Sequence record: MT862763.1
DNA length: 40,294 nt
Source of the DNA: Escherichia phage vB_EcoP-U8
Reading direction: 5' to 3' (one strand)
Part shown: positions 1 through 39,970 of the stretch, one piece after another
How the letters are laid out: each line of letters begins with the position of its first letter
Numbering within the stretch: the first letter of the stretch is position 1
Program-made: the position numbers and the translations under genes
Notes under the pieces: generated by a model
The model's database searches: none
Told to the model about the DNA's origin: nothing
The model's input: the letters and a program-made list of their open reading frames with translations, nothing else

Positions 1-982
1 AGCCTTCGTATGGGTTATCGAAGCAAGGTTCGTTACCACCAATACCGTACGGCGCAAAGATGCCAACCGCAGCAAGCGTGTCATCCTTGACCTTAGCCGT
101 AAACTCGTCCTTCTGCTCCTCGGTCAGACCACAAGCATTAACCACCATGCCATCCTCAAGCAGCACCTCAAAGCCAATCACCTTACCTTCGTTAGCCTTG
201 CCCGGAGTCCCCCACACGAGGCCACATACAGTTCCGTCGATGGTCTCCTCTGGCTTCATTTTCCACATTCCCGACTTCTTGCCACGCTTATATTTACCCA
301 GTGGGTCCTTGACTACCAGACCCTCGTGTCCTTCCAGACGCTTCTGTTCGTACAGGGAGTTGAGCGACTCAAGGTCATAGACCGTGTGTGACTCAGACAG
401 AGCCCAGTCGATTTCCGGGAAGTATTTCTGGAGGAGAGGGACGATAGATTCGGCCTTCAGGCGTGTGACGCTATGGATAGGACCTTCGGCTTTCGGGTCA
501 GCAATGGTTGTCATGTCGATGACACCGTAGACCACAACCTGAAGTCGTGACCGGGATCCCCAGAACGGGAGCTTCTTTCCACCAGTCGCCGGCGAATAGT
601 ATTCAGCGAACTCCTCGTTGTTAGGCTTGAGCCACTTCGTTCGGATGAGACCTGAGGAGGTGTTGAAGTCTACACCTTTGACCATGACCTCGCCATCAAT
701 CATCATGCCCACACCTTCGTAGCCGGATTGACGCAGGAACCATCGCCAGTCAGCTTGGGTCCACGCATTACCTAACTCAGAGTTCATCCACTCCAAGGCT
801 GGTAGAGGTTTCGACTCGCGGCTAAGCCAGTAGGTCTCACCTTCACGCAGGACCAGGAGGTTCAGGCGCACACCATCGTACTTCACTTCAGCTTCCAGAG
901 ACCCGGCTGCTTCCAGTGCCTTCTTAATTCCAGACTCAGAGTAATCTACAGCGCGGTGCGGGTTAGTTTTGATAGTTGTCAT
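1..982 (-). CDS. ATP-dependent DNA ligase (T7 gene 1.3-like), 5' part; runs off window start, C-terminal codons at 40207..40294
   Basis: Own RC translation from ATG at 980-982: MTTIKTNPHRAVDYSESGIKKALEAAGSLEAEVKYDGVRLN... with KYDG adenylation motif and collinear match to T7 ligase as recalled. Absent from the six-frame track because it has no in-window stop. Confidence 0.85.
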   Translation of the reverse strand, partial: MTTIKTNPHRAVDYSESGIKKALEAAGSLEAEVKYDGVRLNLLVLREGETYWLSRESKPLPALEWMNSELGNAWTQADWRWFLRQSGYEGVGMMIDGEVMVKGVDFNTSSGLIRTKWLKPNNEEFAEYYSPATGGKKLPFWGSRSRLQVVVYGVIDMTTIADPKAEGPIHSVTRLKAESIVPLLQKYFPEIDWALSESHTVYDLESLNSLYEQKRLEGHEGLVVKDPLGKYKRGKKSGMWKMKPEETIDGTVCGLVWGTPGKANEGKVIGFEVLLEDGMVVNACGLTEEQKDEFTAKVKDDTLAAVGIFAPYGIGGNEPCFDNPYEG

Positions 983-999
983 CGTTAGTGTCTCCAGAA

Positions 1000-1287
1000 T
1001 TAAAGGAATCGACCAGTGTAGTCGTTGAACTGTTTGTTAAACCAAGTGGCAACCGCTACTGTCTGCACATCTTCGTCGTGGATATTCGGGTACTCCGTGA
1101 AGTCCTTCTCGATGAGGACCTCTCGTGTATGAATGTGGACTATAACCGCCCGGACGCAGTGCCTGTTCATCACCGGGTCAAACCAAGTGCTGACCACTGC
1201 GTTATAGTCGGTCTCGGACTGCCAGTTGTGGATGGCTTTACGCAGGGTGTTCAGGTTTCCACTATGTGCTCTTGAGAACATGCCCAT
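1000..1287 (-). CDS. gp1.2-like protein (dGTPase inhibitor family in T7)
   Basis: 95 aa ORF; SD AGGAG 8 nt upstream of ATG; position and weak similarity (SGNL...HDEDV) to T7 gp1.2. Confidence 0.5.
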   Translation of the reverse strand: MGMFSRAHSGNLNTLRKAIHNWQSETDYNAVVSTWFDPVMNRHCVRAVIVHIHTREVLIEKDFTEYPNIHDEDVQTVAVATWFNKQFNDYTGRFL

Positions 1288-1290
1288 GTC

Positions 1291-1470
1291 TTACGCTCCT
1301 ACGAAATACTTCTCTTGGTTAACCATAGAGTCTTTACCTTCAGCGTTTCTGAAAGCGCCTTTGATACCACCGCCACGCTTGGTCTTGTTCAGCTTGCGGC
1401 CCTTCGGGATGTAACCTTCAGTCTGCTGACGTTCACGGATGCGCTCGAAGTTGATAGTGTTCTGATACAT
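1291..1470 (-). CDS. gp1.1-like small basic protein
   Basis: Own translation MYQNTINFERIRERQQTEGYIPKGRKLNKTKRGGG...; KGRKLNKTKR matches T7 gp1.1 as recalled; below the 60 aa ORF-track cutoff. Confidence 0.45.
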   Translation of the reverse strand: MYQNTINFERIRERQQTEGYIPKGRKLNKTKRGGGIKGAFRNAEGKDSMVNQEKYFVGA

Positions 1471-1503
1471 ACGGTTAAATCTCCAGTAGTGTTTATTTAG
1501 GGT

Positions 1504-1546
1504 TAATCATGAAGGCCACGACTTTGAGTCATGACCTTGAGTCTAA
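1504..1546 (-). promoter_or_regulatory. Conserved leader stem-loop element, copy A (candidate RNase III processing site, R1.1 position)
   Basis: Plus-strand TAATCATGAAGGCCAC...ATGACCTTGAGTCTA; RNA can pair AAGGUCAU with GUGGCCUU; same element at 10689..10726 and 34865..34905. Confidence 0.4.
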
Positions 1547-1566
1547 TCCTATAGTGATAGTTTAGG
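1544..1566 (-). promoter_or_regulatory. Phage RNA polymerase promoter (phi1.1 position)
   Basis: RC reads CTAAACTATCACTATAGGATTA; CACTATAGG core as in T7 promoters; upstream of gene 1.1. Confidence 0.75.
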
Positions 1567-1641
1567 GTTAACCTCTTCTGCGTTGGATTAAAGTGAATAC
1601 TGCGAGTGCTCCCAGCCACAGGGCCAGTAACTGTATGTCTG

Positions 1642-1857
1642 TCATTTGGCCTGCTCCAGCTTGGACACTGCGTCCTTCAGGTACTTCTCGTGGCTGGACT
1701 CGACCAGATATACAAGAGTCTTGAACGGGATGTTAAGCTGCTTGGACATCTCGGTAGGGATGACCGTGGTCTTCACCAGACCCTTGCCGTTGTGTTCTGT
1801 TACGGTCACGATTTGAGTCCCACCATTAACGCCAGTATGCTTGTGTGCAAATTTCAT
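1642..1857 (-). CDS. hypothetical protein (between gene 1 and 1.1)
   Basis: 71 aa ORF with SD AAGGAGAG upstream of ATG. Confidence 0.5.
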   Translation of the reverse strand: MKFAHKHTGVNGGTQIVTVTEHNGKGLVKTTVIPTEMSKQLNIPFKTLVYLVESSHEKYLKDAVSKLEQAK

Positions 1858-1867
1858 AACTCTCTCC

Positions 1868-2098
1868 TTATCTAATTAGAGGGAATGACGGATACTGAAT
1901 GCGCTCGTCTTCCATCCACGCGTTAAGAACTTCATCAATCGAAGCTATAAGGTTGTACTCGTTAGGTTGAATCCACCCAGTCACACCCGACTGTAATCTG
2001 TCTCGGAGAATGATTAAATCCTTATAAGTCAGCTCTACATGGCAACGTCCCGACCCATCGTTGAATACCCTGTTGTGTGCTACAAGTTTCATTGACAT
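1868..2098 (-). CDS. hypothetical protein (between gene 1 and 1.1)
   Basis: 76 aa ORF; SD AGGAG 6 nt upstream of ATG, immediately after RNAP stop. Confidence 0.5.
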   Translation of the reverse strand: MSMKLVAHNRVFNDGSGRCHVELTYKDLIILRDRLQSGVTGWIQPNEYNLIASIDEVLNAWMEDERIQYPSFPLIR

Positions 2099-2113
2099 AT
2101 ACTTCTCCTGTTG

Positions 2114-4795
2114 TTAAGCGAATGCAAAGTCTGAAGACAAGATGTCTTCGATATTCAGTTTACCTTTCTTCGGAAGCTCAGGCAACTTGTCTCTCTGGCT
2201 CTCGTGAAGCTGGTATTCAAACTGCTCGTAGAAGTCAAGCAGCACATCGTTGTCGCGGTAGGTCTCGACCATCGTCTCACGGACTCCACGGAACAGATAC
2301 TCAGCGTCAGCCGGGATGGTCCCGAAGCTATCGTGAATCACTGCGAATGACATCACGCCATATTTGCGGTGCGTGTGTACTACAGTCTTGCGGAGGTGGC
2401 TACCATCTTGTGAGTGGACGAAGTTCGGGCTAATGCCTGACTCCTGCTTGTGCTTGTCCAGCTCTTTCTTCGTGCCTTTGTTGACGGTAGGCTGAAGGTT
2501 GAATGACCCTAAGAACATCAGGTTCAGACGAGTGGTGTCCTTCTTGCGGTATTCCTGCCAGACAGGGAAACCATCAGGTGTGACCCAGTGTACCGGAAGA
2601 CAAGGCTTCAGGATTTCTCCAGTCTTCTTGTCCTTCACTTCAGCAGCAAGCAGCTTGGCAGCACCCTGAAGCCATTTCATCGCGTCAACCGCAGCAACTA
2701 CGGTCACACTCACAGCTTCCCAAATCATCTTAGCCATGAAGCGAGATGCTTGGCTTGGTTCAGTGAACATAGCGCCAGACCCTGAGTCAATCGCTGGCAT
2801 CACGATGTCCTCGTAAACTTGGTCTGCGAAGCCGTACTCTTTCGACCCGTAGGCCAGAGTCATGACCGAACGCTTAGTGACCTTTCGTGACATACCGTAG
2901 GTCAGCCACTGACGGGCAAGCTCTCGTGTCCCCAGCTTGAGACGCTCGGTAATCTCACCAGTTTTCTTGTCCTCGTGAGTTACCATCTCGTTGTCCGTAC
3001 CGTTAACCAGTAGGACTTTAAGCTCCTCCTCAATGCGGTCAGACACGATGCGGTAGATGTCTTGGACCTTACCGGATGGCGTCAGGTTTACTGCATGTCC
3101 ACCGATGTGGTCGCGAAGCATAGCGCTGAAGTGCTGAATCCCAGAGCAGGACCCATCGAACGCTATCGGCAGCGAGCAGGAGTAAGACAAGCCGTGGTGC
3201 ATTACGCCAGCATACTCGAAGCAGAACGCTAGGAAGCAGAACGGAGAGTCTAACTTGCCCCACCACTCAATGCTATCCATCGGTGCCTTGGCAGCAGCCA
3301 TGATGTTGTCGTGGTTATCTTCCACCCACTTGATACGCTCCTCGAAGGTGACTTTATCGACACCCGCGCAGTTTGCACCGTGGACCTTCAGCCATTTGAA
3401 ACCATCAGCACCAATAGGCTTACCGACTGCCAGAGTCAGAAGACCCTTTTGCATGTCGTTACCCTGAGGGTTGAACATCGGCACAGCGTAGACGCGACCG
3501 CGCCAGTCCATGTTATACGGGAACCAGATGGCCTTGAACTGAGAGAACTTGTTCGCTTGGTTGACGATAAAGCTCAGTGACAATCTTCGTGACTGTCTGG
3601 CCTTCTCGCGGCGATAGATACCAGCAGCAGCCTTCTTCCATGCCTTGAGTTCTTCTTCAGTCTCACCCGCATAGTCCTCAGGCTTCAGCGGTTCCATCTG
3701 AGGGATGTCATCAATAGGCGTGTTGTTCAGCTTCTCGACCATGTTCACCACTTCCAGAACCTTCTTGTTCACTTTCCAAGGTGTATTCTGAATGATGTTC
3801 ACAGCGTCATAGACTTCAGGCATATACACGTCTTCGTAGCGTGCTACCGCAGACTTAGACCCTAAGCGAATCAGTGGTAATGGTCTGCGTCCTTTGGCCC
3901 AGTACCCACCGCCTACGACACCAGTCCACGGCTTAGGTGGAACGACGCAAGGCTGGTAGACTGGAGCTATACCCGCAAGGCTGAATCCTCGTTGTGCCAT
4001 CTTCTTGACCCAGAAGTCTGACAGGTGGACCATCTCAACGTCAGCCGCTGCATTGCCAGCACCGTAACGCTTAAGCTCGACCAGTTGTGTGGACTGGATG
4101 ACAATCTCCAGCATCTTGATTCCAACGTGGACAGCCTCGGTCGGACTCCAAGTCCCCCACGCATCTTCCAGTTGGCCTTGCTCCAGCATGGATGCCTCGA
4201 CCGCTTGCATGTAGGCTTTCTTGTAGGACGCCCCGGCCCGCTTATTCAGGTTATCAGCTATCGCCTTCTTGAAGTGCTCTTTCTCCTTGTCACGGATGCG
4301 ACCGAAGCGGATTTCGTCCTCAAGTGTGCGACCTATCGCTGAGGCCATCGGTGTAATCGGTATCCCTTCAGGCTTGACCAGCTTGGAGAGTATGACCTTC
4401 AGTATGATAACCGCAGCAGACTCGCAGGAGATGCGCAAAGAGCGGACCTTTACGGCCTTCTCTTCAGTGCTCAACATGGTGAACGCTACGCTCGGACGAG
4501 AGGTTGACAGCTTCCCGTCTGGACCTTCATGCCACTCCTTGACGGCTTGCGCAATCTTAGGGACCAGAGTCTGCATCAAAGGCTTGGCGACCTGATTGTC
4601 TGCCAGTTCCCCTCGCTCAGTCTGTCTCTCAAGGTTCTTGATGAAACGTCGCTCGCCTTCAGTGTATGCCTCGTGCTCAAGCTGAAGCTGTTTGACTGCA
4701 AGGTCTTGCCCGTAGTGGTCAGCCAGTAGGTTAAACGGCTCAATGGCGTTCGACACATCAGAGAAGTCGTGCTTGTCAATAGAGATGACGCTCAT
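2114..4795 (-). CDS. Single-subunit DNA-directed RNA polymerase (T7 gene 1-like)
   Basis: 893 aa; collinear with T7 RNAP as recalled (MSVISIDKHDFSD..., ...ILSSDFAFA C-terminus, NMDWRGRVYAV, HDSFGT motifs). Confidence 0.97.
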   Translation of the reverse strand: MSVISIDKHDFSDVSNAIEPFNLLADHYGQDLAVKQLQLEHEAYTEGERRFIKNLERQTERGELADNQVAKPLMQTLVPKIAQAVKEWHEGPDGKLSTSRPSVAFTMLSTEEKAVKVRSLRISCESAAVIILKVILSKLVKPEGIPITPMASAIGRTLEDEIRFGRIRDKEKEHFKKAIADNLNKRAGASYKKAYMQAVEASMLEQGQLEDAWGTWSPTEAVHVGIKMLEIVIQSTQLVELKRYGAGNAAADVEMVHLSDFWVKKMAQRGFSLAGIAPVYQPCVVPPKPWTGVVGGGYWAKGRRPLPLIRLGSKSAVARYEDVYMPEVYDAVNIIQNTPWKVNKKVLEVVNMVEKLNNTPIDDIPQMEPLKPEDYAGETEEELKAWKKAAAGIYRREKARQSRRLSLSFIVNQANKFSQFKAIWFPYNMDWRGRVYAVPMFNPQGNDMQKGLLTLAVGKPIGADGFKWLKVHGANCAGVDKVTFEERIKWVEDNHDNIMAAAKAPMDSIEWWGKLDSPFCFLAFCFEYAGVMHHGLSYSCSLPIAFDGSCSGIQHFSAMLRDHIGGHAVNLTPSGKVQDIYRIVSDRIEEELKVLLVNGTDNEMVTHEDKKTGEITERLKLGTRELARQWLTYGMSRKVTKRSVMTLAYGSKEYGFADQVYEDIVMPAIDSGSGAMFTEPSQASRFMAKMIWEAVSVTVVAAVDAMKWLQGAAKLLAAEVKDKKTGEILKPCLPVHWVTPDGFPVWQEYRKKDTTRLNLMFLGSFNLQPTVNKGTKKELDKHKQESGISPNFVHSQDGSHLRKTVVHTHRKYGVMSFAVIHDSFGTIPADAEYLFRGVRETMVETYRDNDVLLDFYEQFEYQLHESQRDKLPELPKKGKLNIEDILSSDFAFA

Positions 4796-4864
4796 ACTTA
4801 AAGTCCTTGTTATTAGTCTTTCACTTAAAGTCTCTTTGGTCTTTCACTTGGAGTCTTAGACCTT

Positions 4865-4887
4865 GAGTCCTATAGTGATAGTTAAGT
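4865..4887 (-). promoter_or_regulatory. Phage RNA polymerase promoter directly upstream of the RNAP gene
   Basis: Plus strand CCTATAGTGATAGTTAAG at 4869..4886; +1 about 75 nt upstream of the RNAP start codon. Confidence 0.65.
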
Positions 4888-4892
4888 CAGAA

Positions 4893-5219
4893 TTACTTGC
4901 ATATCAGCGGGTTAGCGTGGAGATGACTGAAGTCACCATGAGTCGTGTGCTTGATGGTTGACCGTTGGTCTATCGCCTTCCAGCCTGAGACTAAAAGTTT
5001 ACCATCGTCAGTGATTGGTCGTCCACCATACACCAGACACATTAGTTCGGACTTATGGCCCTCAGCCCGGAGTCTTGCTTGCAGTACCCGGTCCCGCTCC
5101 TGCTGTTGACGTGCGGAGTGACTTGACGTTCCGTGACGATACCCGGTAGCCAGTAGGCTTAACATTTGCATGTCTGCGTCCATAGAGTGTACCAGATTAA
5201 TCCCGTATGACTTGTTCAT
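4893..5219 (-). CDS. hypothetical early protein
   Basis: 108 aa ORF in early region; His-rich segments; no recognised family. Confidence 0.45.
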   Translation of the reverse strand: MNKSYGINLVHSMDADMQMLSLLATGYRHGTSSHSARQQQERDRVLQARLRAEGHKSELMCLVYGGRPITDDGKLLVSGWKAIDQRSTIKHTTHGDFSHLHANPLICK

Positions 5220-5593
5220 TACAGTTTGCTCCCAAGTGTTGCTATATCCCAGACGTTCGCTAAGTTACGCATGAATCGTCCGTTAGGTTGACGTACAGTC
5301 CAGCTACCCAGACGTACATATTTGAATTTGTAGACTTTACGCGCTTTGTTGATGTCTCTCACCAGCACGTAGGCGATAAGTCCATAGCCTATGGCTATCA
5401 ATAGTGCGATACTCATAGTCATAAGCCCCATAACAGTTGAGTAAGGACCGGTAGTTTGCAGACTAGAGTAAACATTCCCCACGCTACGAAGCCTGAGATA
5501 GTCCAGATGATTGCAGTGCTCATAGTTAACTCCTATTAATTCAAGTGGTAATCTTTGAGGCCACCTATCAGTCGATGACCTCTCGTCTATCAC
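5219..5593 (-). CDS. hypothetical early protein with predicted transmembrane helix (start uncertain)
   Basis: 124 aa ORF; hydrophobic stretch MSIALLIAIGYGLIAYVLV; a 33-aa alternative-frame ORF with strong SD overlaps near 5430..5531. Confidence 0.3.
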   Translation of the reverse strand: MIDERSSTDRWPQRLPLELIGVNYEHCNHLDYLRLRSVGNVYSSLQTTGPYSTVMGLMTMSIALLIAIGYGLIAYVLVRDINKARKVYKFKYVRLGSWTVRQPNGRFMRNLANVWDIATLGSKL

Positions 5594-5636
5594 TCAGTAC
5601 CCGCCTGTCAGCGTTATGGTCAGGCTGTGATACACG

Positions 5637-5792
5637 TTACTTATCCTCAGCGTGCAAACTGTCGTGTATGCGCTTGCGGCCCTCATAGACCGCTTTCAGG
5701 TGACGCATAGTCGCATCGTGGTTTAATTGCCCGGTCTTGACCATAAGCCGGGCGTTAGTGACGTGGTGCTGGCAGAGACCATAAGTTACCAT
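5637..5792 (-). CDS. hypothetical early protein
   Basis: ATG at 5790-5792 overlaps kinase stop (AGATGGTAA), suggesting translational coupling; 51 aa. Confidence 0.3.
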   Translation of the reverse strand: MVTYGLCQHHVTNARLMVKTGQLNHDATMRHLKAVYEGRKRIHDSLHAEDK

Positions 5793-6310
5793 CTTGATGA
5801 CCTCACCTCTTGCAGCTTGGACACAAGGAAGAAACAATCAACCAGTATCAACTTGCCATCCACAACCCGTACATTACGTGGGCTTATCTCAAACTGAATG
5901 TCTGACCCGAAGTTAGCGCAAGCGTCCAGCGCCATCATAACATCCATCAGGCCCTCCCGCACAGTCTCAGACTCAGACCTGTCGTGTGCATCTTGGAATA
6001 TCTCGTACCACTTGTGATACAGTTCGGCAGGTCGAGAGAATACCGGAGACCGTGAGAAGCAGTCTCGCAACACCTGATAGAGTTGCCATTGGTCATCGTC
6101 TAAATGCGCCTTGAGACCTCGTGTTGGTGGCATGTATTCCATCTCATATGTGCCTACCTCAATCATTTTGACTTCAGGGAACAGTGGAGACTCAGGGAAC
6201 CATCCCCACGCCATACACTCCTTGATTGGGTCTGAAGATACCAGAATCACACGCTTCCCGCAGTCCTTCAGGTAACACTTAGTGAATGCGCCTTTTCCGA
6301 TCAGTTTCAT
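5786..6310 (-). CDS. putative protein kinase, gp0.7-like but short (kinase domain only)
   Basis: 174 aa; N-terminal IGKGAFTKCY glycine-rich loop and VDGKLILVDCFF resemble T7 gp0.7 kinase region; SD AAAGGA 8 nt upstream. Confidence 0.45.
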   Translation of the reverse strand: MKLIGKGAFTKCYLKDCGKRVILVSSDPIKECMAWGWFPESPLFPEVKMIEVGTYEMEYMPPTRGLKAHLDDDQWQLYQVLRDCFSRSPVFSRPAELYHKWYEIFQDAHDRSESETVREGLMDVMMALDACANFGSDIQFEISPRNVRVVDGKLILVDCFFLVSKLQEVRSSRW

Positions 6311-6380
6311 CTTGTTTATCCTTTAGTTAGTGACTATCAGTCAGGCCGCTATCAGTCTAACGACCTGTAGTTAATCACTC

Positions 6381-6635
6381 TCAGTTAGCGAAATAAGGAG
6401 CTGAGACGCCCACTGTAGGACTCACGGTTATCTGCGAGTCTATCAGGTATGTCTCGTTGTCTATACGCACAGTATCGACGCTGTAGTTGCTGAACTGCTT
6501 GCTTGATACCTTGCGCACTACCACACGGTGACGCGCTCCTGTCATCTCTTTAAGCTGAATCCACGCATAACCTTTAGTGTTCACGAATACTTCATTGCGA
6601 TTAGTGATTGTGCTTAAGTGTTTCATAGTGTCCAT
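6381..6635 (-). CDS. hypothetical first early protein (gene 0.3 position; not Ocr-like)
   Basis: 84 aa ORF; start may be the Met at codon 4 (better SD spacing). Confidence 0.45.
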   Translation of the reverse strand: MDTMKHLSTITNRNEVFVNTKGYAWIQLKEMTGARHRVVVRKVSSKQFSNYSVDTVRIDNETYLIDSQITVSPTVGVSAPYFAN

Positions 6636-6804
6636 CCTTTAAGTTAGTGACTATCAGTCAGGGCCTTCAGATGTAGACTCAAAGGCCCTGTAGTTAGTCG
6701 CTATCGGCGCACATTAAGAGTTTATCCAGATTGTTAAAGAGCATTCCCTTCAGTCAGAGGACTTCAGGTAGACCGTTTCAGTGTCGGTCGTCACCGTTGT
6801 TTCG

Positions 6805-6843
6805 ATGTGGTACAGCTTACATCTTATCGTTACTGCTTGTCAA
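6805..6843 (-). promoter_or_regulatory. Candidate host sigma70 early promoter (T7 A2/A3-like architecture)
   Basis: RC reads TTGACA-N18-TAAGCT-GTACCACATCGAAAC, resembling T7 A3 (TTGACA...TACGAT GTACCACATGAAAC) as recalled. Confidence 0.4.
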
Positions 6844-7104
6844 CTACTTTCTGTCATCTGCCTGTTGTTCGTATGACTTATCAGGCTGTCTACTTAACCG
6901 GGATGACCAGGCGTCTTCACTATCCGGTTGTTGCCGTGTCGTGTTGACGGAAGCTATTAGGCCATAGTCTGGACCTATAGTCAATAGGTAATTTTAAATA
7001 ATATTGATTAAGCTATCGTCGGCCCCATGGTGTAAGAGGATGTAGTCTTTGACTAACATGTCTTAGACCTTAAGTCTATATCCTTGTGTCTATTAACGTA
7101 GGTC

Positions 7105-7185
7105 TCTGACTGTAGGTAGCGGCATTACCGATGGTCGATGACTGTAGGTAGTTAGACTGTAAGTAGTTAGACTGTAGGTAGTGAC
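7105..7185. repeat. Short tandem/direct repeats (GACTGTAGGTAG x4, last three at 15-bp period) in genome-end region
   Basis: Copies at 7108, 7140, 7155 (one mismatch), 7170; lies between gene 19 and the early promoters, where T7 carries terminal-repeat and CCTAAAG-type repeats. Confidence 0.6.
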
Positions 7186-7618
7186 TCAAGGTCTGATACA
7201 GATAGAGACTCAAAGAAGACCAATAGTCCCTACCTATCGTCTTTCCCTAAGCCATAGCCACAACCTATCGTTGACCTGAAGTCTTGACCATCGGTCTAAC
7301 CTTATGATAGACTGGGGTAGGGCCTTTGGTCTGGACTAAAAGAGGGCCTATGGGGAGACTTGAGGTTCTTGAACTGTGAGATGTGGTCTCAAACTTTTGG
7401 TCCAAAACTCATCGTCACTACTGTAGACCACAGCCACTGTAGGTCAATGACCGTAGGTCAGGCGACACTAGGATAGACCAATAAGTAGGATGACCCTAAG
7501 TGAGCTTCTCTTAAGGTGTTACCTAAAGTCCTTGACTACAGTAGCTAAGGTCAGTAGAGTAGCGTCAGCTATGAACTGACCTTAGGTCTTGCTTTCGTTG
7601 ATTGTTACCATTACGGCG

Positions 7619-7777
7619 TTAACGACACTCAGACACCAGAGAACATACGAGAGTCTCGACCCACCCGACCCACTGACTTCCAGCAGTAACGCCAGCAGCA
7701 AGTAGAACAGCAGCAAGAAACCTGTATGTAGCTCGATTGGTCGCCAGAGCTTTAAGTACAGCTTTGGTCTTTGCCAT
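7619..7777 (-). CDS. small hydrophobic ORF (gene 19.5 position)
   Basis: About 52 aa, MAKTKAVLKALATNRATYRFLAAVLLAAGVTAG...; SD AGGAGG 10 nt upstream; downstream of phiOR-like promoter. Confidence 0.3.
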   Translation of the reverse strand: MAKTKAVLKALATNRATYRFLAAVLLAAGVTAGSQWVGWVETLVCSLVSECR

Positions 7778-7957
7778 ATGCTACATACCTCCTGTATCTA
7801 TGGTCGGTGACTATCTGTATTGGAGGGATTATGATTAATATCACCCTCCTTCCATCGGTGCAAGCCTTAGGTAAGAACTCGGAGTCTGCCTCCTAAGGTC
7901 TTGCATAAAGTCTGCATATGTATATTCACTACAGTAATACTATAAGTAACCGGGGGT

Positions 7958-7980
7958 CTTCCCTATAGTGATAGTTAAGT
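7958..7980 (-). promoter_or_regulatory. Phage RNA polymerase promoter (phiOR position, after gene 19)
   Basis: Plus strand CCTATAGTGATAGTTAAG at 7962..7979. Confidence 0.7.
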
Positions 7981-8074
7981 CCAAACTCCTTGTAAAACAG
8001 TAGGTTAGACTGGTAGTAACTATAGGTTACTAACTGCGTATTCATGCAGCTTTCACCTATAGTTATTCATTCAG

Positions 8075-9838
8075 CTAGTGGAACGTAACGTAGTGCCCTA
8101 GTCCAAGCTCGTCGTCCGTATCGTGAGTTACCCGGACCCCATTGTCCCAGAACTCAGTGTGGATGGACTCGAAGCCTTTCCGTGGGTTCTCCATCTGTTC
8201 CTCCAGCCACTCCTCAGTGACTTCACGTTCTCCTTTGTTGGCATCCTTAGCCATAGACTCAACGAAGAACTGTACACCGATAGCCAGCGCATCAAGTCGG
8301 TCATCGTGTGCCAAGGCCCCACGTTCACGAGAGATACGGGTCATCTGATAGAAGAGAGAGTAGATAGGGTTACGAACACCATCCTTGTCAGAGGCTGTCT
8401 GGTAGTCTTGGACGATAGCAGCAGCGTTGACGATAAGTCGGTGAGACCCCATGATAGGCTCCAGAACGTCACAGATGCGGAGTTCTTTCTGACCCTTACT
8501 CTTCACTTCAGTTACAGCCGCAGGATGGATACGGGCCGCTACAGGCTTGAATAACTCAAGGTACATACCATCACCGAAGTTACCCTCAATGACGTATTCG
8601 TTGACCTTCCACTTACGACCAATCTTAGCCAAGGCTTCCAGAGTAGAGTCTTCATAACCACCACGCATACCGCCTACTTCCATAGCGAAGATGTAGCCGT
8701 TGAGCTGATACAGTACCGCATAGCCAGTTTCATCCTTACCACGACCACTAGGGTCAATGACCAGAATCTTCTGGGTGTACGAGCTGAAGGCAGAACCTAC
8801 AGTCTGATACGTGTGGTATGAGTCACCCATGAGTCCAACGTTAGGGACGTCCTCACGCTTGTTCTGAGGGTTAGGCAACCATTGGTAGACCATTGGACTA
8901 GACGCTGGGTCCAAGTCCGCTACGATAAGGTCACGGAGCTTCAGAGGGTACTTCTCAGCATCACTCAGGTTCGGGTTAAGCATGAACTGTAGAGCGAAGC
9001 CAGCTTTACCATAGGACAGCTCACGTTCCTTCAGGTCCGTATCATCGAATCGTACCTCATCGGTCGGACGCCAGTAGAAGGACTCAGGGTCCTCTTCCAG
9101 TTCTGCCTGAAGCATAGGAGCCAGACGGTCGCCGTAAGACTGCCAGTCCTTCCTGTCGCGTGGGTAACGAGCAGGCCAGATAGTAGTGGTGTACCCACGA
9201 CCTTCCAACTCACGGTACAGGGTCATCTCGTTCTGAGGAGTACCCAGATAAATGATTGTGCCTCCCGGCTTCAGGATAGCGTCGAACTCTTTCACAAGCT
9301 CTGACAGACGGTCTCGTGCAGCCTGAGTCGCAGAGTTATTAGGAACCTCCACGTCATCTGCAATCAGGATGTCAGCACGACTACCAGTCAACTGACCAGT
9401 GATACCAACAGACTTAACCGAAGGTGAGTGGTCTGGCTTGGCTGGCCCAACGTCGAAGCTAATAACAGCATCTCGCTGTCCCTGCTTAGGTTTGAGTTCC
9501 TGAAGCTGAGGCATGAGGTCGATGATTCGCTTGATGAATATGGAGTTAGCATCGGCTCGTTCCTTTGAGGCCGACACAATCATGAACTTCAAGTCTGGGT
9601 TGTTCCATAGTTTCCAGACCACGAATGCACACGTAATGAATGACTTCCCGATACCACGGAACGCCTGAAGGATGAAACGCCTGTTGTCCCCAGCCGATAG
9701 TTTCTTCGCCATGTCAATCTGACAGCGAGTCGGGACTGGGAGCGACAGAGCTTTCCACAGGACGAACAGGAAGAACACGAAGTCGGCCTTCATACGTGCC
9801 GTCATAAGCGCCTGACGCGCCGCTAAGTCTTGACTCAA
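8075..9838 (-). CDS. Terminase large subunit (T7 gp19-like DNA maturase B)
   Basis: 587 aa; collinear with T7 gp19 as recalled ([18 protein letters not shown] Walker A region, [19 protein letters not shown]). Confidence 0.95.
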
Positions 9839-10994: not shown

Positions 10995-11185
10995 GTCTTA
11001 CCTCCGCTCTTAATCGTCTTGTAAATTAGGACGCCAATCTGCACCACGGTGTACGCGATAGCAGCGACGTAGAACCATTCGTTGAGCGTTAGCCCAAAGA
11101 AGAACCGACTGGCACCATCAGCCGCAGCGGTCCCGACGATAGGCGAGGCTTTGAGGACCTCATTCTTGAAGTCAAACTCAATCAT
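10991..11185 (-). CDS. Holin (T7 gp17.5-like)
   Basis: 64 aa; GLTLNEWFYVAAIAYTVVQIG nearly identical to T7 gp17.5 as recalled. Confidence 0.85.
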   Translation of the reverse strand: MIEFDFKNEVLKASPIVGTAAADGASRFFFGLTLNEWFYVAAIAYTVVQIGVLIYKTIKSGGKT

Positions 11186-36966: not shown

Positions 36967-36989
36967 CATCCCTAAGGTGATAGTTTAGC
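36967..36989 (-). promoter_or_regulatory. Variant phage promoter upstream of tRNA-like gene and gene 4
   Basis: CCTAAGGTGATAGTTTAG at 36971..36988 (RC CTAAACTATCACCTTAGG, two changes at -4/-3). Confidence 0.55.
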
Positions 36990-37211: not shown

Positions 37212-37670
37212 TTAGCCTCGGTCGGAAGTGACCAGTTCGTTAGTGTTAAGCCAGCGCTGCAAGTCGAAACTTGGGCAAGCCTTTGGTGCTACATCGTGGT
37301 GAGCCTTGATTTCTGCCTGAGGATACAAGTCCTTCAGGTCAGCCAGCTTGTTGCGCAGGGAGTTCATCTGGGCTGGAGTGAAGTTAGCTTCAAACTTGCC
37401 CTTAGCGTCAATTCCACCTACAAGGCAGACGCCTACAGACCGTGAGTTCCAGTCCTTAACGTGTGACCCTACGACATTGACAGGGCGTCCCTCTTCCACA
37501 GTACCATCGCGCTTGATGATAAAGTGGTAGCCTACGTCCAGCCAGCCTTGCTGCTTGTGCCACATACGGATGGTCTCTACCCCGATGTCCATCTCTGGCT
37601 TGGTTGCGCTACAGTGAACGAAGATAGCGTCAGTCCGGGACCGTGGGTTGAACTGAACCTTACTCACCAT
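37212..37670 (-). CDS. N-acetylmuramoyl-L-alanine amidase / T7 lysozyme (gp3.5-like)
   Basis: 152 aa; AIFVHCSATKP, WLDVGYHFIIKRDGTVEEGR, PKACPSFDL match T7 lysozyme as recalled. Confidence 0.95.
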   Translation of the reverse strand: MVSKVQFNPRSRTDAIFVHCSATKPEMDIGVETIRMWHKQQGWLDVGYHFIIKRDGTVEEGRPVNVVGSHVKDWNSRSVGVCLVGGIDAKGKFEANFTPAQMNSLRNKLADLKDLYPQAEIKAHHDVAPKACPSFDLQRWLNTNELVTSDRG

Positions 37671-38336: not shown

Positions 38337-39034
38337 TAGAAGTCGTAATCGCCACCAGGGTTGGAGTCGTCACCACCTTCGGAACCATCGTCACCGAAGT
38401 CATCACCACCGAAGTCACCAACGGTTGACGCTTTGTAGCCAGTACCAAGGTCTTCATCATCACCCCAGCCACCATCGCCACCAGCACCATCGCCTTTCCA
38501 CTCCTTCAGTTCTACCAGAAGGCAGGACTCAAGCTGGAGCTTAACGCTTGCACCAGTCGCAGCGTTCCACTTGAACGGCAGGACTTTAAACTTGACCTTC
38601 AGCTTAGACCCAGCGCAGATATTCGGGACGTCACGGATGAGTTTAGCATCGGTGTCGTAGAACCGTAATACGATAGGCTCGGACTTGCCGTCTTTCAGGT
38701 AAGACGCAAAGCATTTAAACTTAAGGGTAACAGTACCGTCACCATTCTCAATCCACGGCATGTCGCCTTCTCGTGGTTCAATAGGCTTCTTGCCACGCTG
38801 AACCTGAGGTGGGTTCTTCTCGTGGTCTGCGAGTGCTTTTGCATACGCATCGTCGTGAATCTTCTGTAAGACATCAATCATCTTACGGACCTTATGGTTG
38901 CTCAGGTCGAATGTCAGGTTAACCTTATGCTCACCACGCTCGTTAAACTTGGTGTCTGCTTTGTTCAGCCATGCGTAAGGCTCAACGATACCAGCTACCG
39001 GAGTGGTGAAAGTCTTCAGTTGCTCTTTAGCCAT
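38336..39034 (-). CDS. Single-stranded DNA-binding protein (gp2.5-like)
   Basis: 232 aa; matches T7 gp2.5 as recalled incl. acidic C-terminus ending DF. Confidence 0.95.
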   Translation of the reverse strand: MAKEQLKTFTTPVAGIVEPYAWLNKADTKFNERGEHKVNLTFDLSNHKVRKMIDVLQKIHDDAYAKALADHEKNPPQVQRGKKPIEPREGDMPWIENGDGTVTLKFKCFASYLKDGKSEPIVLRFYDTDAKLIRDVPNICAGSKLKVKFKVLPFKWNAATGASVKLQLESCLLVELKEWKGDGAGGDGGWGDDEDLGTGYKASTVGDFGGDDFGDDGSEGGDDSNPGGDYDF

Positions 39035-39074: not shown

Positions 39075-39097
39075 CTGTCCTACAGTGATAGTTTAGG
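39075..39097 (-). promoter_or_regulatory. Phage promoter (phi2.5 position), one-base variant
   Basis: CCTACAGTGATAGTTTAG at 39079..39096; overlaps gp2 stop. Confidence 0.65.
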
Positions 39098-39947: not shown

Positions 39948-39970
39948 GTTGTCCTATAGTGATAGCTTAG
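39948..39970 (-). promoter_or_regulatory. Phage promoter (phi1.5/1.6 position), one-base variant
   Basis: CCTATAGTGATAGCTTAGG at 39952..39970. Confidence 0.65.

Follow-up and report, generated by a model that had tools for sequence, protein, structure and literature searches.

Phage promoters directly ahead of gene 1, the gene for the T7-type RNA polymerase, are on record for relatives of the phage studied here, and the idea of feedback through such a promoter has already been published for other T7-like phages (phiA318 and LUZ100). The site described below, at 4887-4865 on the minus strand of the window (the whole stretch analysed, 40,294 nucleotides of Escherichia phage vB_EcoP-U8), is itself not new, being annotated in EcoDS1 (EU734172) and having its equivalent in gh-1 (NC_004665). 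The curated record of the Kayfunavirus coliphage EcoDS1 (EU734172 / NC_011042) lists an orthologous promoter, "phi", at 2244-2266 that is identical over its 23 bp (ACTTAACTATCACTATAGGACTC), its +1 lies 75 nt before the gene 1 ATG, and its leader is identical to that of the window. A 2026 Kayfunavirus genome paper describes CTWAACTATCACTATAGG repeats, one of which is placed at the 3' end of the gene just ahead of that for the polymerase (PMC13298934). In gh-1 the phage promoter phi1 (939-961; labelled "phi1; putative gh-1 RNAP promoter" in the record) follows the host promoters and immediately precedes gene 1, as in the window, and the leader likewise holds short direct repeats rich in TAAAGAC. 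The gh-1 locus differs in its promoter consensus (AAAAACCCTCACTGTGGC), in the start of the promoter 118 nt before the ATG, and in having almost no early genes, and in its record phi1 overlaps an annotated minor terminator and a host promoter.

Two further phages come with an explicit statement of autoregulation. For the Pseudomonas phage LUZ100, a transcript start was mapped by ONT-cappable-seq at the phage promoter phi1 directly upstream of the polymerase gene, and a positive-feedback model was proposed for that promoter (PMC10134795); LUZ100 shows features of a temperate phage, and its loop is proposed to be gated by a MarR-like repressor, whereas neither such a regulator nor a lysogeny module is evident in the window. 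For Vibrio phage phiA318, a predicted promoter (phi-A8) just upstream of the kinase and RNA polymerase genes was described as "suggesting autoregulation" (PMC4099482), but that phage is SP6/K1E-like with another consensus, its promoter precedes two genes, and the case is a prediction only. T7 itself (NC_001604) has phiOL at nt 405, which resembles the window site in its orientation, in lying upstream of gene 1 and in being leftmost on the genome, but which sits ∼2.8 kb upstream, ahead of the host promoters A1-A3, and is off-consensus (CAACTCACTATAAGG). In the T7 0.7/1 intergenic region there is no phage promoter, only the minor Escherichia coli promoter C at 3113. The initial annotation of the window had described T7 gene 1 as served only by host promoters, with the first phage promoter downstream of it; the T7 record agrees with this as far as the 0.7/1 intergenic region is concerned but not for the first phage promoter, because phiOL lies upstream of both the host promoters and gene 1. 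The same circuit logic, a polymerase that transcribes its own gene, was reportedly built by Dubendorff and Studier in 1991 as a synthetic T7 "autogene", with T7 gene 1 behind a T7 promoter. That construct was engineered and needed lac repression and lysozyme for tolerance, whereas the arrangement in the window is natural and stands within a lytic programme.

Layout of the early region and the promoter ahead of gene 1

The large genes of the window are on the minus strand. Over the 801 bases around the promoter that were compared, the best match was Escherichia phage LM33_P1 (99.9% identical), and the same stretch matched 203 phage records, nearly all from Kayfunavirus, the genus of K1F-like phages within the T7 subfamily Studiervirinae, to which the window also belongs. 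BLAST placed nt 1-217 of EcoDS1 at window positions 7381-7163 and the right end of that genome at 8178-7204. The two ends meet on a single terminal-repeat copy, which shows the window to be circularly permuted and puts the left end of the mature genome at ∼7381 in window coordinates; the assembly is reverse-complemented as well. Read from the left end, the minus strand carries host-type early promoters, small early ORFs down to 4893, the promoter at 4887-4865, and gene 1. The features of this region and of its surroundings are as follows.

7958-7980, minus strand: promoter of phiOR type, +1 at 7963, located at the mature genome's right end (consensus scan; EcoDS1 phiOR)
7204-7381, minus strand: terminal repeat, single copy (BLAST mapping of EcoDS1 ends)
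6650-6983, minus strand: host (sigma-70) early promoter region, approximate (EcoDS1 left end mapped by BLAST)
4893-5219, minus strand: last early ORF, 108 aa, at the position of K1F/EcoDS1 gene 0.38 (ORF list; gp0.38 annotation of relatives)
4865-4887, minus strand: predicted promoter for the phage RNA polymerase, K1F specificity type, spanning -17 to +6, ACTTAACTATCACTATAGGACTC (genome consensus match, EcoDS1 annotation, conservation)
2114-4795, minus strand: gene 1, single-subunit T7-type RNA polymerase, 893 aa (Pfam PF00940, RNA_pol, 1.5e-106, and PF14700, RPOL_N)
1544-1566, minus strand: next phage promoter, downstream of gene 1, +1 at 1549 (consensus scan)

The host promoter region takes its location from the EcoDS1 mapping, in which host RNAP promoters are annotated at 469-505, 609-647, and 764-800; a generic sigma-70 scan of the window did not convincingly pick out the early host promoters. 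A Pfam search assigned the 108-aa product of the last early ORF to no family, and the EcoDS1 gp0.38 is longer (132 aa). The gene 1 product is 99.4% identical to K1F gp1 over 872 aa and its specificity loop, RLNL..FNLQ, is identical to that of K1F, and thus the genome encodes a cognate single-subunit polymerase with a matching loop. We note that several RefSeq records (NC_031937, NC_011042, NC_007636, and others) label this T7-type gene 1 product "N4-like RNA polymerase", a misleading name that stems from automated annotation, and that the IMM-002 record (MF630921) looks over-annotated, with many implausible short overlapping or antisense coding sequences under names such as "glycine cleavage system protein H", "50S ribosomal protein L31", and "ATPase 8".

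In T7 numbering, the predicted +1 of the gene 1-proximal promoter is G4870, which places it 75 nt from the polymerase ATG at 4795. The upstream ORF stops with the TAA at 4895-4893, and the promoter therefore begins 5 nt past the stop codon; both the distance of about 75 nt and the position after the last early ORF had been given correctly in the initial annotation. The site is intergenic, is oriented like the genes, and precedes a gene with a ribosome-binding site. At 4865-4887 it gives a 23-bp match (-17 to +6) that includes the CACTATAG core expected of T7-group promoters of K1F specificity type, and it has no mismatch to the genome's own consensus, CTWAACTATCACTATAGG. A scan of the genome for that consensus, with up to three mismatches allowed, returned 11 sites, every one of them on the minus (coding) strand and with at most two mismatches, compared to 0.03 expected. 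Eight copies are perfect, the gene 1-proximal site among them, and the core CACTATAGG occurs nine times in the window, all on the minus strand, compared to 0.28 expected. The initially transcribed bases are GGACTC at the gene 1-proximal promoter versus GGGAGA at the capsid-gene promoter. On the minus strand, neither the stretch from the host promoters to gene 1 nor that from the promoter to the ATG contains a terminator-like site, and the sole one on that strand within window positions 1-8200 is at 1024-1010, downstream of gene 1.

Given the mature left end at ∼7381, the promoter with its +1 at 7963 is phiOR and not phiOL. The EcoDS1 record correspondingly annotates phiOR (38500-38522) and no phiOL, and in the consensus scan of the window nothing of phiOL type turned up from the left end to gene 1; in EcoDS1 as in the window, the phage promoter that comes first on the mature genome is the gene 1-proximal site. 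The next one, with its +1 at 1549, is followed by a candidate T7-type hairpin (GACTCAAGGTCAT...GTGGCCTTCATGATT), which may be RNase III-like, judged by the sequences of T7 sites. Elsewhere in the genome three promoter copies depart from the consensus (36971-36988, 39079-39096, and 39953-39970, all on the minus strand), with the sequences CACCTTAGG, CACTGTAGG, and CTAAGC in place of CTAAAC. By sequence they appear to match the EcoDS1 promoters at 11107-11129 (before gene 4), phi2.5, and phi1.6, and they are probably weaker middle-gene promoters.

Conservation and co-variation with the polymerase

The initial annotation had proposed a comparison with related genomes, and the promoter was present at the same position before gene 1 in all 27 of the Kayfunavirus-like relatives examined (EcoDS1, K1F, 21 IMG/VR contigs, and four more distant Kayfunavirus records). 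The distance from the +1 to the gene 1 ATG was 75/76 or 81/82 nt in every one of them, and the position did not change across about 15% polymerase divergence within the genus. The 181-nt region around the promoter matched 220 phage records, 218 of them over at least 80% of its length.

The specificity bases of the promoter (-12 to -8) follow the specificity loop of the polymerase in each lineage. At the positions of T7 N748 and R756, the polymerases of ACTAT-type phages, including the window phage and K1F, have N and N. In L023 (one of the compared sequences), EcpYZU01, and SFP20, by contrast, these residues are D and R, as they are in the polymerase of the T3-type phage phiCFP-1; the promoters elsewhere in the stretches fetched for these three are of the AACCCTCACTATAGG type, and the gene 1-proximal site likewise reads CCCTC. 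Because the promoter changes specificity along with the enzyme, it appears to be kept for that enzyme, and we regard this co-variation as good evidence of promoter function. In vivo, a T7 polymerase carrying the K1F specificity loop gave 17-fold activation of a promoter with the K1F-subfamily consensus at -12 to -7 (PMC3458549). Within Kayfunavirus the polymerase loop thus has an N/N form, which goes with ACTAT promoters, and a D/R form, which goes with T3-like CCCTC promoters, and this split amounts to a recent switch of promoter specificity inside one genus, at 85-89% polymerase identity (window gene 1, L023, L037, and L039).

The perfect consensus match, the orientation, the presence in 27 of 27 relatives, the co-variation with the loop, and the EcoDS1 annotation bear out the initial proposal of a cognate phage promoter. 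Judged from these sequence comparisons, the gene 1-proximal site is a real and conserved cognate promoter whose function is almost certain, and it is highly probable that 4887-4865 on the minus strand works as a promoter for the phage's own single-subunit polymerase and is the first such promoter on the mature genome.

Other lineages have substitutions at -2 or -3 of the gene 1-proximal site (TAAAGG, TGTAGG, and TAGAGG), and the promoter may be weak where they occur. Like variants are found at other middle-gene promoters in the whole-genome promoter lists of IMM-002 and EcoDS1, and for that reason we dropped the proposal that the gene 1-proximal promoter has been selectively weakened in IMM-002/LET1, EcpYZU01, and SFP20. 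A proposed tie between the proximal promoter and loss of the gene 0.7 kinase was also rejected, as LET1, SFP20, and IMM-002 have both the kinase and the promoter.

Beyond Kayfunavirus, genera were compared by using curated or de novo promoter sets around gene 1; the panel included K11 (Przondovirus), BA14 and CECAV_058 (Berlinvirus), a Yersinia phage, phiCFP-1 (Teetrevirus), Erwinia L1 (Elunavirus), and Vibrio Rostov-1 (Chatterjeevirus). T7, K11, BA14, and five others have no proximal copy and a phiOL-like copy 1.4-3.3 kb upstream, and SP6 also has no gene 1-proximal copy. The absence from T7, K11, BA14, and five other genera indicates that the promoter is not essential to the T7 plan. A proximal copy is present in the Pseudomonas phages 17A and gh-1 (Ghunavirus), where the consensus copy starts the same 118 nt before the ATG, and in Issaku (Pifdecavirus), where it starts 120 nt before the start codon and is accompanied by a phiOL-like copy (-3622). 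The initial annotation had set the arrangement apart from that of T7, a reading that would fail if T7-group phages routinely carried a phage promoter at this place. For part of the group they do, since proximal promoters are genus-wide in Kayfunavirus, occur also in Ghunavirus (gh-1 and 17A) and Pifdecavirus, and have been reported for phiA318 and LUZ100, and the arrangement is not unusual. We also considered whether the gene 1-proximal promoter is a phiOL that has moved, and set this candidate aside because the word shared by its leader and the T7 phiOL leader, AAAGAGACTT, is too short at 10 nt to support it.

The leader and its repeats

A transcript from the predicted start would begin with a short leader that includes two direct repeats.

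4796-4870, minus strand: leader of the predicted phage-promoter transcript, 75 nt (sequence)
4813-4833 and 4836-4856, minus strand: two 21-nt direct repeats, AGACTCCAAGTGAAAGACCAA and AGACTTTAAGTGAAAGACTAA (repeat search)

The leader has an AAGGA Shine-Dalgarno sequence at 4808-4804, 8 nt ahead of the gene 1 ATG, and across the 11 sequences aligned from different lineages its first ∼18 nt and last ∼20 nt show little or no variation. The direct repeats, noticed in the initial annotation at about 4816 and 4838, are real, and those coordinates are right to within 1 nt. They are 86% identical and 23 nt apart, with weaker copies at 4788-4805 and 4852-4869. The 21-nt repeats are kept in the K1F/EcoDS1, L023, and SFP20 lineages, and other AAGAC-rich sequence takes their place in the IMM-002/LET1 and EcpYZU01 lineages. 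Short AAGAC-rich repeats are a recurrent feature of non-coding DNA at the left end or in leaders of T7-group genera: ahead of gene 1 in gh-1, the leader (L041 960-1030) has ATCTTAAAGAC direct repeats, and the T7 left end (L024 238-340) has ACCTAAAGAC four times.

There is no supported RNA structure in the leader. Its fold was no better than that of shuffled controls, either alone (z of 0.01) or with flanks (z of -0.20 to -0.96), and an Rfam search of the leader gave no match. RNAalifold, applied to 11 diverse leaders, returned only a 9-bp pairing of +3..+12 with the Shine-Dalgarno region, and the pairs are invariant in the 11 leaders, with no covariation.

The leader starts with GACTCAAGGTC (4869-4859), the word that makes up the 5' arm in RNase III sites of T7 type. 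As the criterion for such a site we used an irregular hairpin of ∼20 bp with the arms ..ACUCAAGGUC.. and ..GGCCUU(U/C)AUGAUU.., these arms following T7-type sites and, in part, the complete sites at ∼10724 and 1543 of the window. The 3' arm word GGCCTT(T/C)ATGATT is missing from the leader, which is therefore not called an RNase III site, and an equivalent of T7 R1 in the leader was rejected on this absence together with folds equal to shuffles and the lack of covariation. The 9-mer GACTCAAGG occurs 10 times in the window, five times per strand (366, 7183, 9832, 27348, and 29318 on the plus strand; 27021, 17609, 10724, 4869, and 1543 on the minus strand), compared to ∼0.3 expected by a uniform estimate. 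Its minus-strand copies at ∼10724 and 1543 are the 5' arms of complete T7-type RNase III-like hairpins of the form ..AAGGTCAT..GTGGCCTT(T/C)ATGATT. A separate observation concerns the IMM-002/LET1 clade, in which an 11-nt word of the leader, CTTTAGTGATA, ∼45-55 nt downstream of the promoter, is exactly the reverse complement of the clade's promoter core TATCACTAAAG (L016-L021, L036, and L038); the -2 T>A change of the promoter in this clade is matched within the leader sequence.

Role of the promoter and alternative readings

By analogy with T7 and from the EcoDS1 annotation, the host RNA polymerase would start at the sigma-70 promoters (∼6983-6650) and read through the early genes into gene 1. 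The newly made phage polymerase would then initiate at G4870, giving the 75-nt leader with its AAGGA, followed by the polymerase gene and the genes downstream of it. The enzyme would in this way add to its own mRNA, and the feedback would keep gene 1 expressed after the host polymerase is shut off. With a cognate promoter upstream of the polymerase's own gene and no terminator-like site between the two, self-amplification follows logically from the layout, and we consider positive autoregulation of gene 1 plausible. Because gene 1 already belongs to the host-transcribed early operon, the contribution of the extra promoter may be small. A candidate limiter of the loop is also encoded.

37212-37670, minus strand: gp3.5-like amidase, a T7 lysozyme homologue (Pfam Amidase_2, 7.7e-17)

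By T7 analogy, this protein is likely a brake on the polymerase, and the loop is probably limited by its binding to the enzyme; the non-consensus GGACTC start may limit it as well. A more elaborate version, in which the proximal promoter replaced phiOL and the strength of a tuned loop is set by the GGACTC start and the -2/-3 variants of other lineages together with a throttle in the leader, seems to us unlikely. The throttle in that version would consist of the AAGAC-rich repeats and the complementarity between the 5' end and the Shine-Dalgarno sequence, acting through RNA or through a protein. The gh-1-like phages may share such a leader throttle, as their gene 1 leader has similar TAAAGAC repeats.

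Autoregulation has to be weighed against the possibility that the promoter is functional but serves mainly as a stand-in for phiOL, that is, as the first entry point for the phage polymerase, which would there take over transcription-driven DNA internalisation and middle-gene expression, with any extra gene 1 mRNA a by-product. Genome entry in T7 is coupled to transcription, neither EcoDS1 nor the mapped window has a phiOL-type copy anywhere from the left end to gene 1, the gene 1-proximal site is the first phage promoter on the mature genome, and in each of the eight genera without a proximal copy a phiOL-like one lies 1.4-3.3 kb upstream of gene 1. These points lend the proposal some weight, yet we doubt that it describes the main job of the site. 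Issaku, with its phiOL-like copy at -3622 and its proximal copy at -120, shows that phiOL and the proximal promoter are not simple alternatives; the next promoter (1549), only ∼3.3 kb further on, would also be in the cell once the polymerase is made; and a transcript from 4870 passes through gene 1 regardless.

Another proposal is that the promoter is a replication origin, or part of one, at which transcripts of the phage polymerase would prime DNA synthesis in the manner of T7 phi1.1A/B and phiOL. T7 has a secondary origin at phiOL, and the site shares with it the leftmost position on the genome; the leader is A+T-rich and a TGGTC primase-type word is found on the opposite strand at ∼4838-4842. 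A 5-nt primase word is, however, expected by chance every few hundred bases, and the T7 primary origin is downstream of gene 1, where the window phage has a promoter too (+1 at 1549), which leaves an origin at 4865-4887 very unlikely. That the promoter and leader block is kept at least partly for a role at the RNA level is, in our estimate, quite unlikely. One form of this proposal has the promoter sequence in host read-through RNA pairing with the second repeat in an irregular hairpin that would act as an R1-like RNase III processing site, and another has the 5' end of the leader pairing with the ribosome-binding region and throttling translation. The former draws on the minimum-energy folds of the window and L023, which pair UCACU..AGG.CUC..GGUCU with AGACC..GAG.CUU..AGUGA (4878-4822), on the complementarity of CTTTAGTGATA to the promoter TATCACTAAAG in the IMM-002 clade, and on GACTCAAGGTC, the 5' arm word of an RNase III site, at the start of the leader; the 9-bp RNAalifold pairing of +3..+12 with the Shine-Dalgarno region speaks for the latter. 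Set against these, the fold energies are no better than those of shuffled controls (z of 0.01, -0.20, -0.96, -0.93, and -0.23), the minimum-energy fold of the IMM-002 type does not use the promoter-leader pairing, the RNAalifold pairs never vary and so show no covariation, and the leader has neither the 3' arm motif of the two complete sites nor an Rfam match. An inert consensus match with no use in vivo is the reading we find hardest to credit, given a perfect match against a chance expectation of 0.03, a position fixed across about 15% polymerase divergence within the genus, and specificity bases that in three lineages have changed from ACTAT to CCCTC in step with the polymerase loop.

The preferred reading, a working promoter through which the polymerase plausibly raises its own expression, leaves a comparative residue in the division of the Studiervirinae genera between those with a gene 1-proximal promoter (Kayfunavirus, Ghunavirus, and Pifdecavirus) and those with the distal phiOL only. 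If the loop works as proposed, expression of K1F-type polymerases would be partly independent of the host enzyme, which would bear on the speed with which K1F-type phages take over the cell, and self-activation would be a toxicity risk for K1F-type polymerase/promoter pairs in synthetic circuits.
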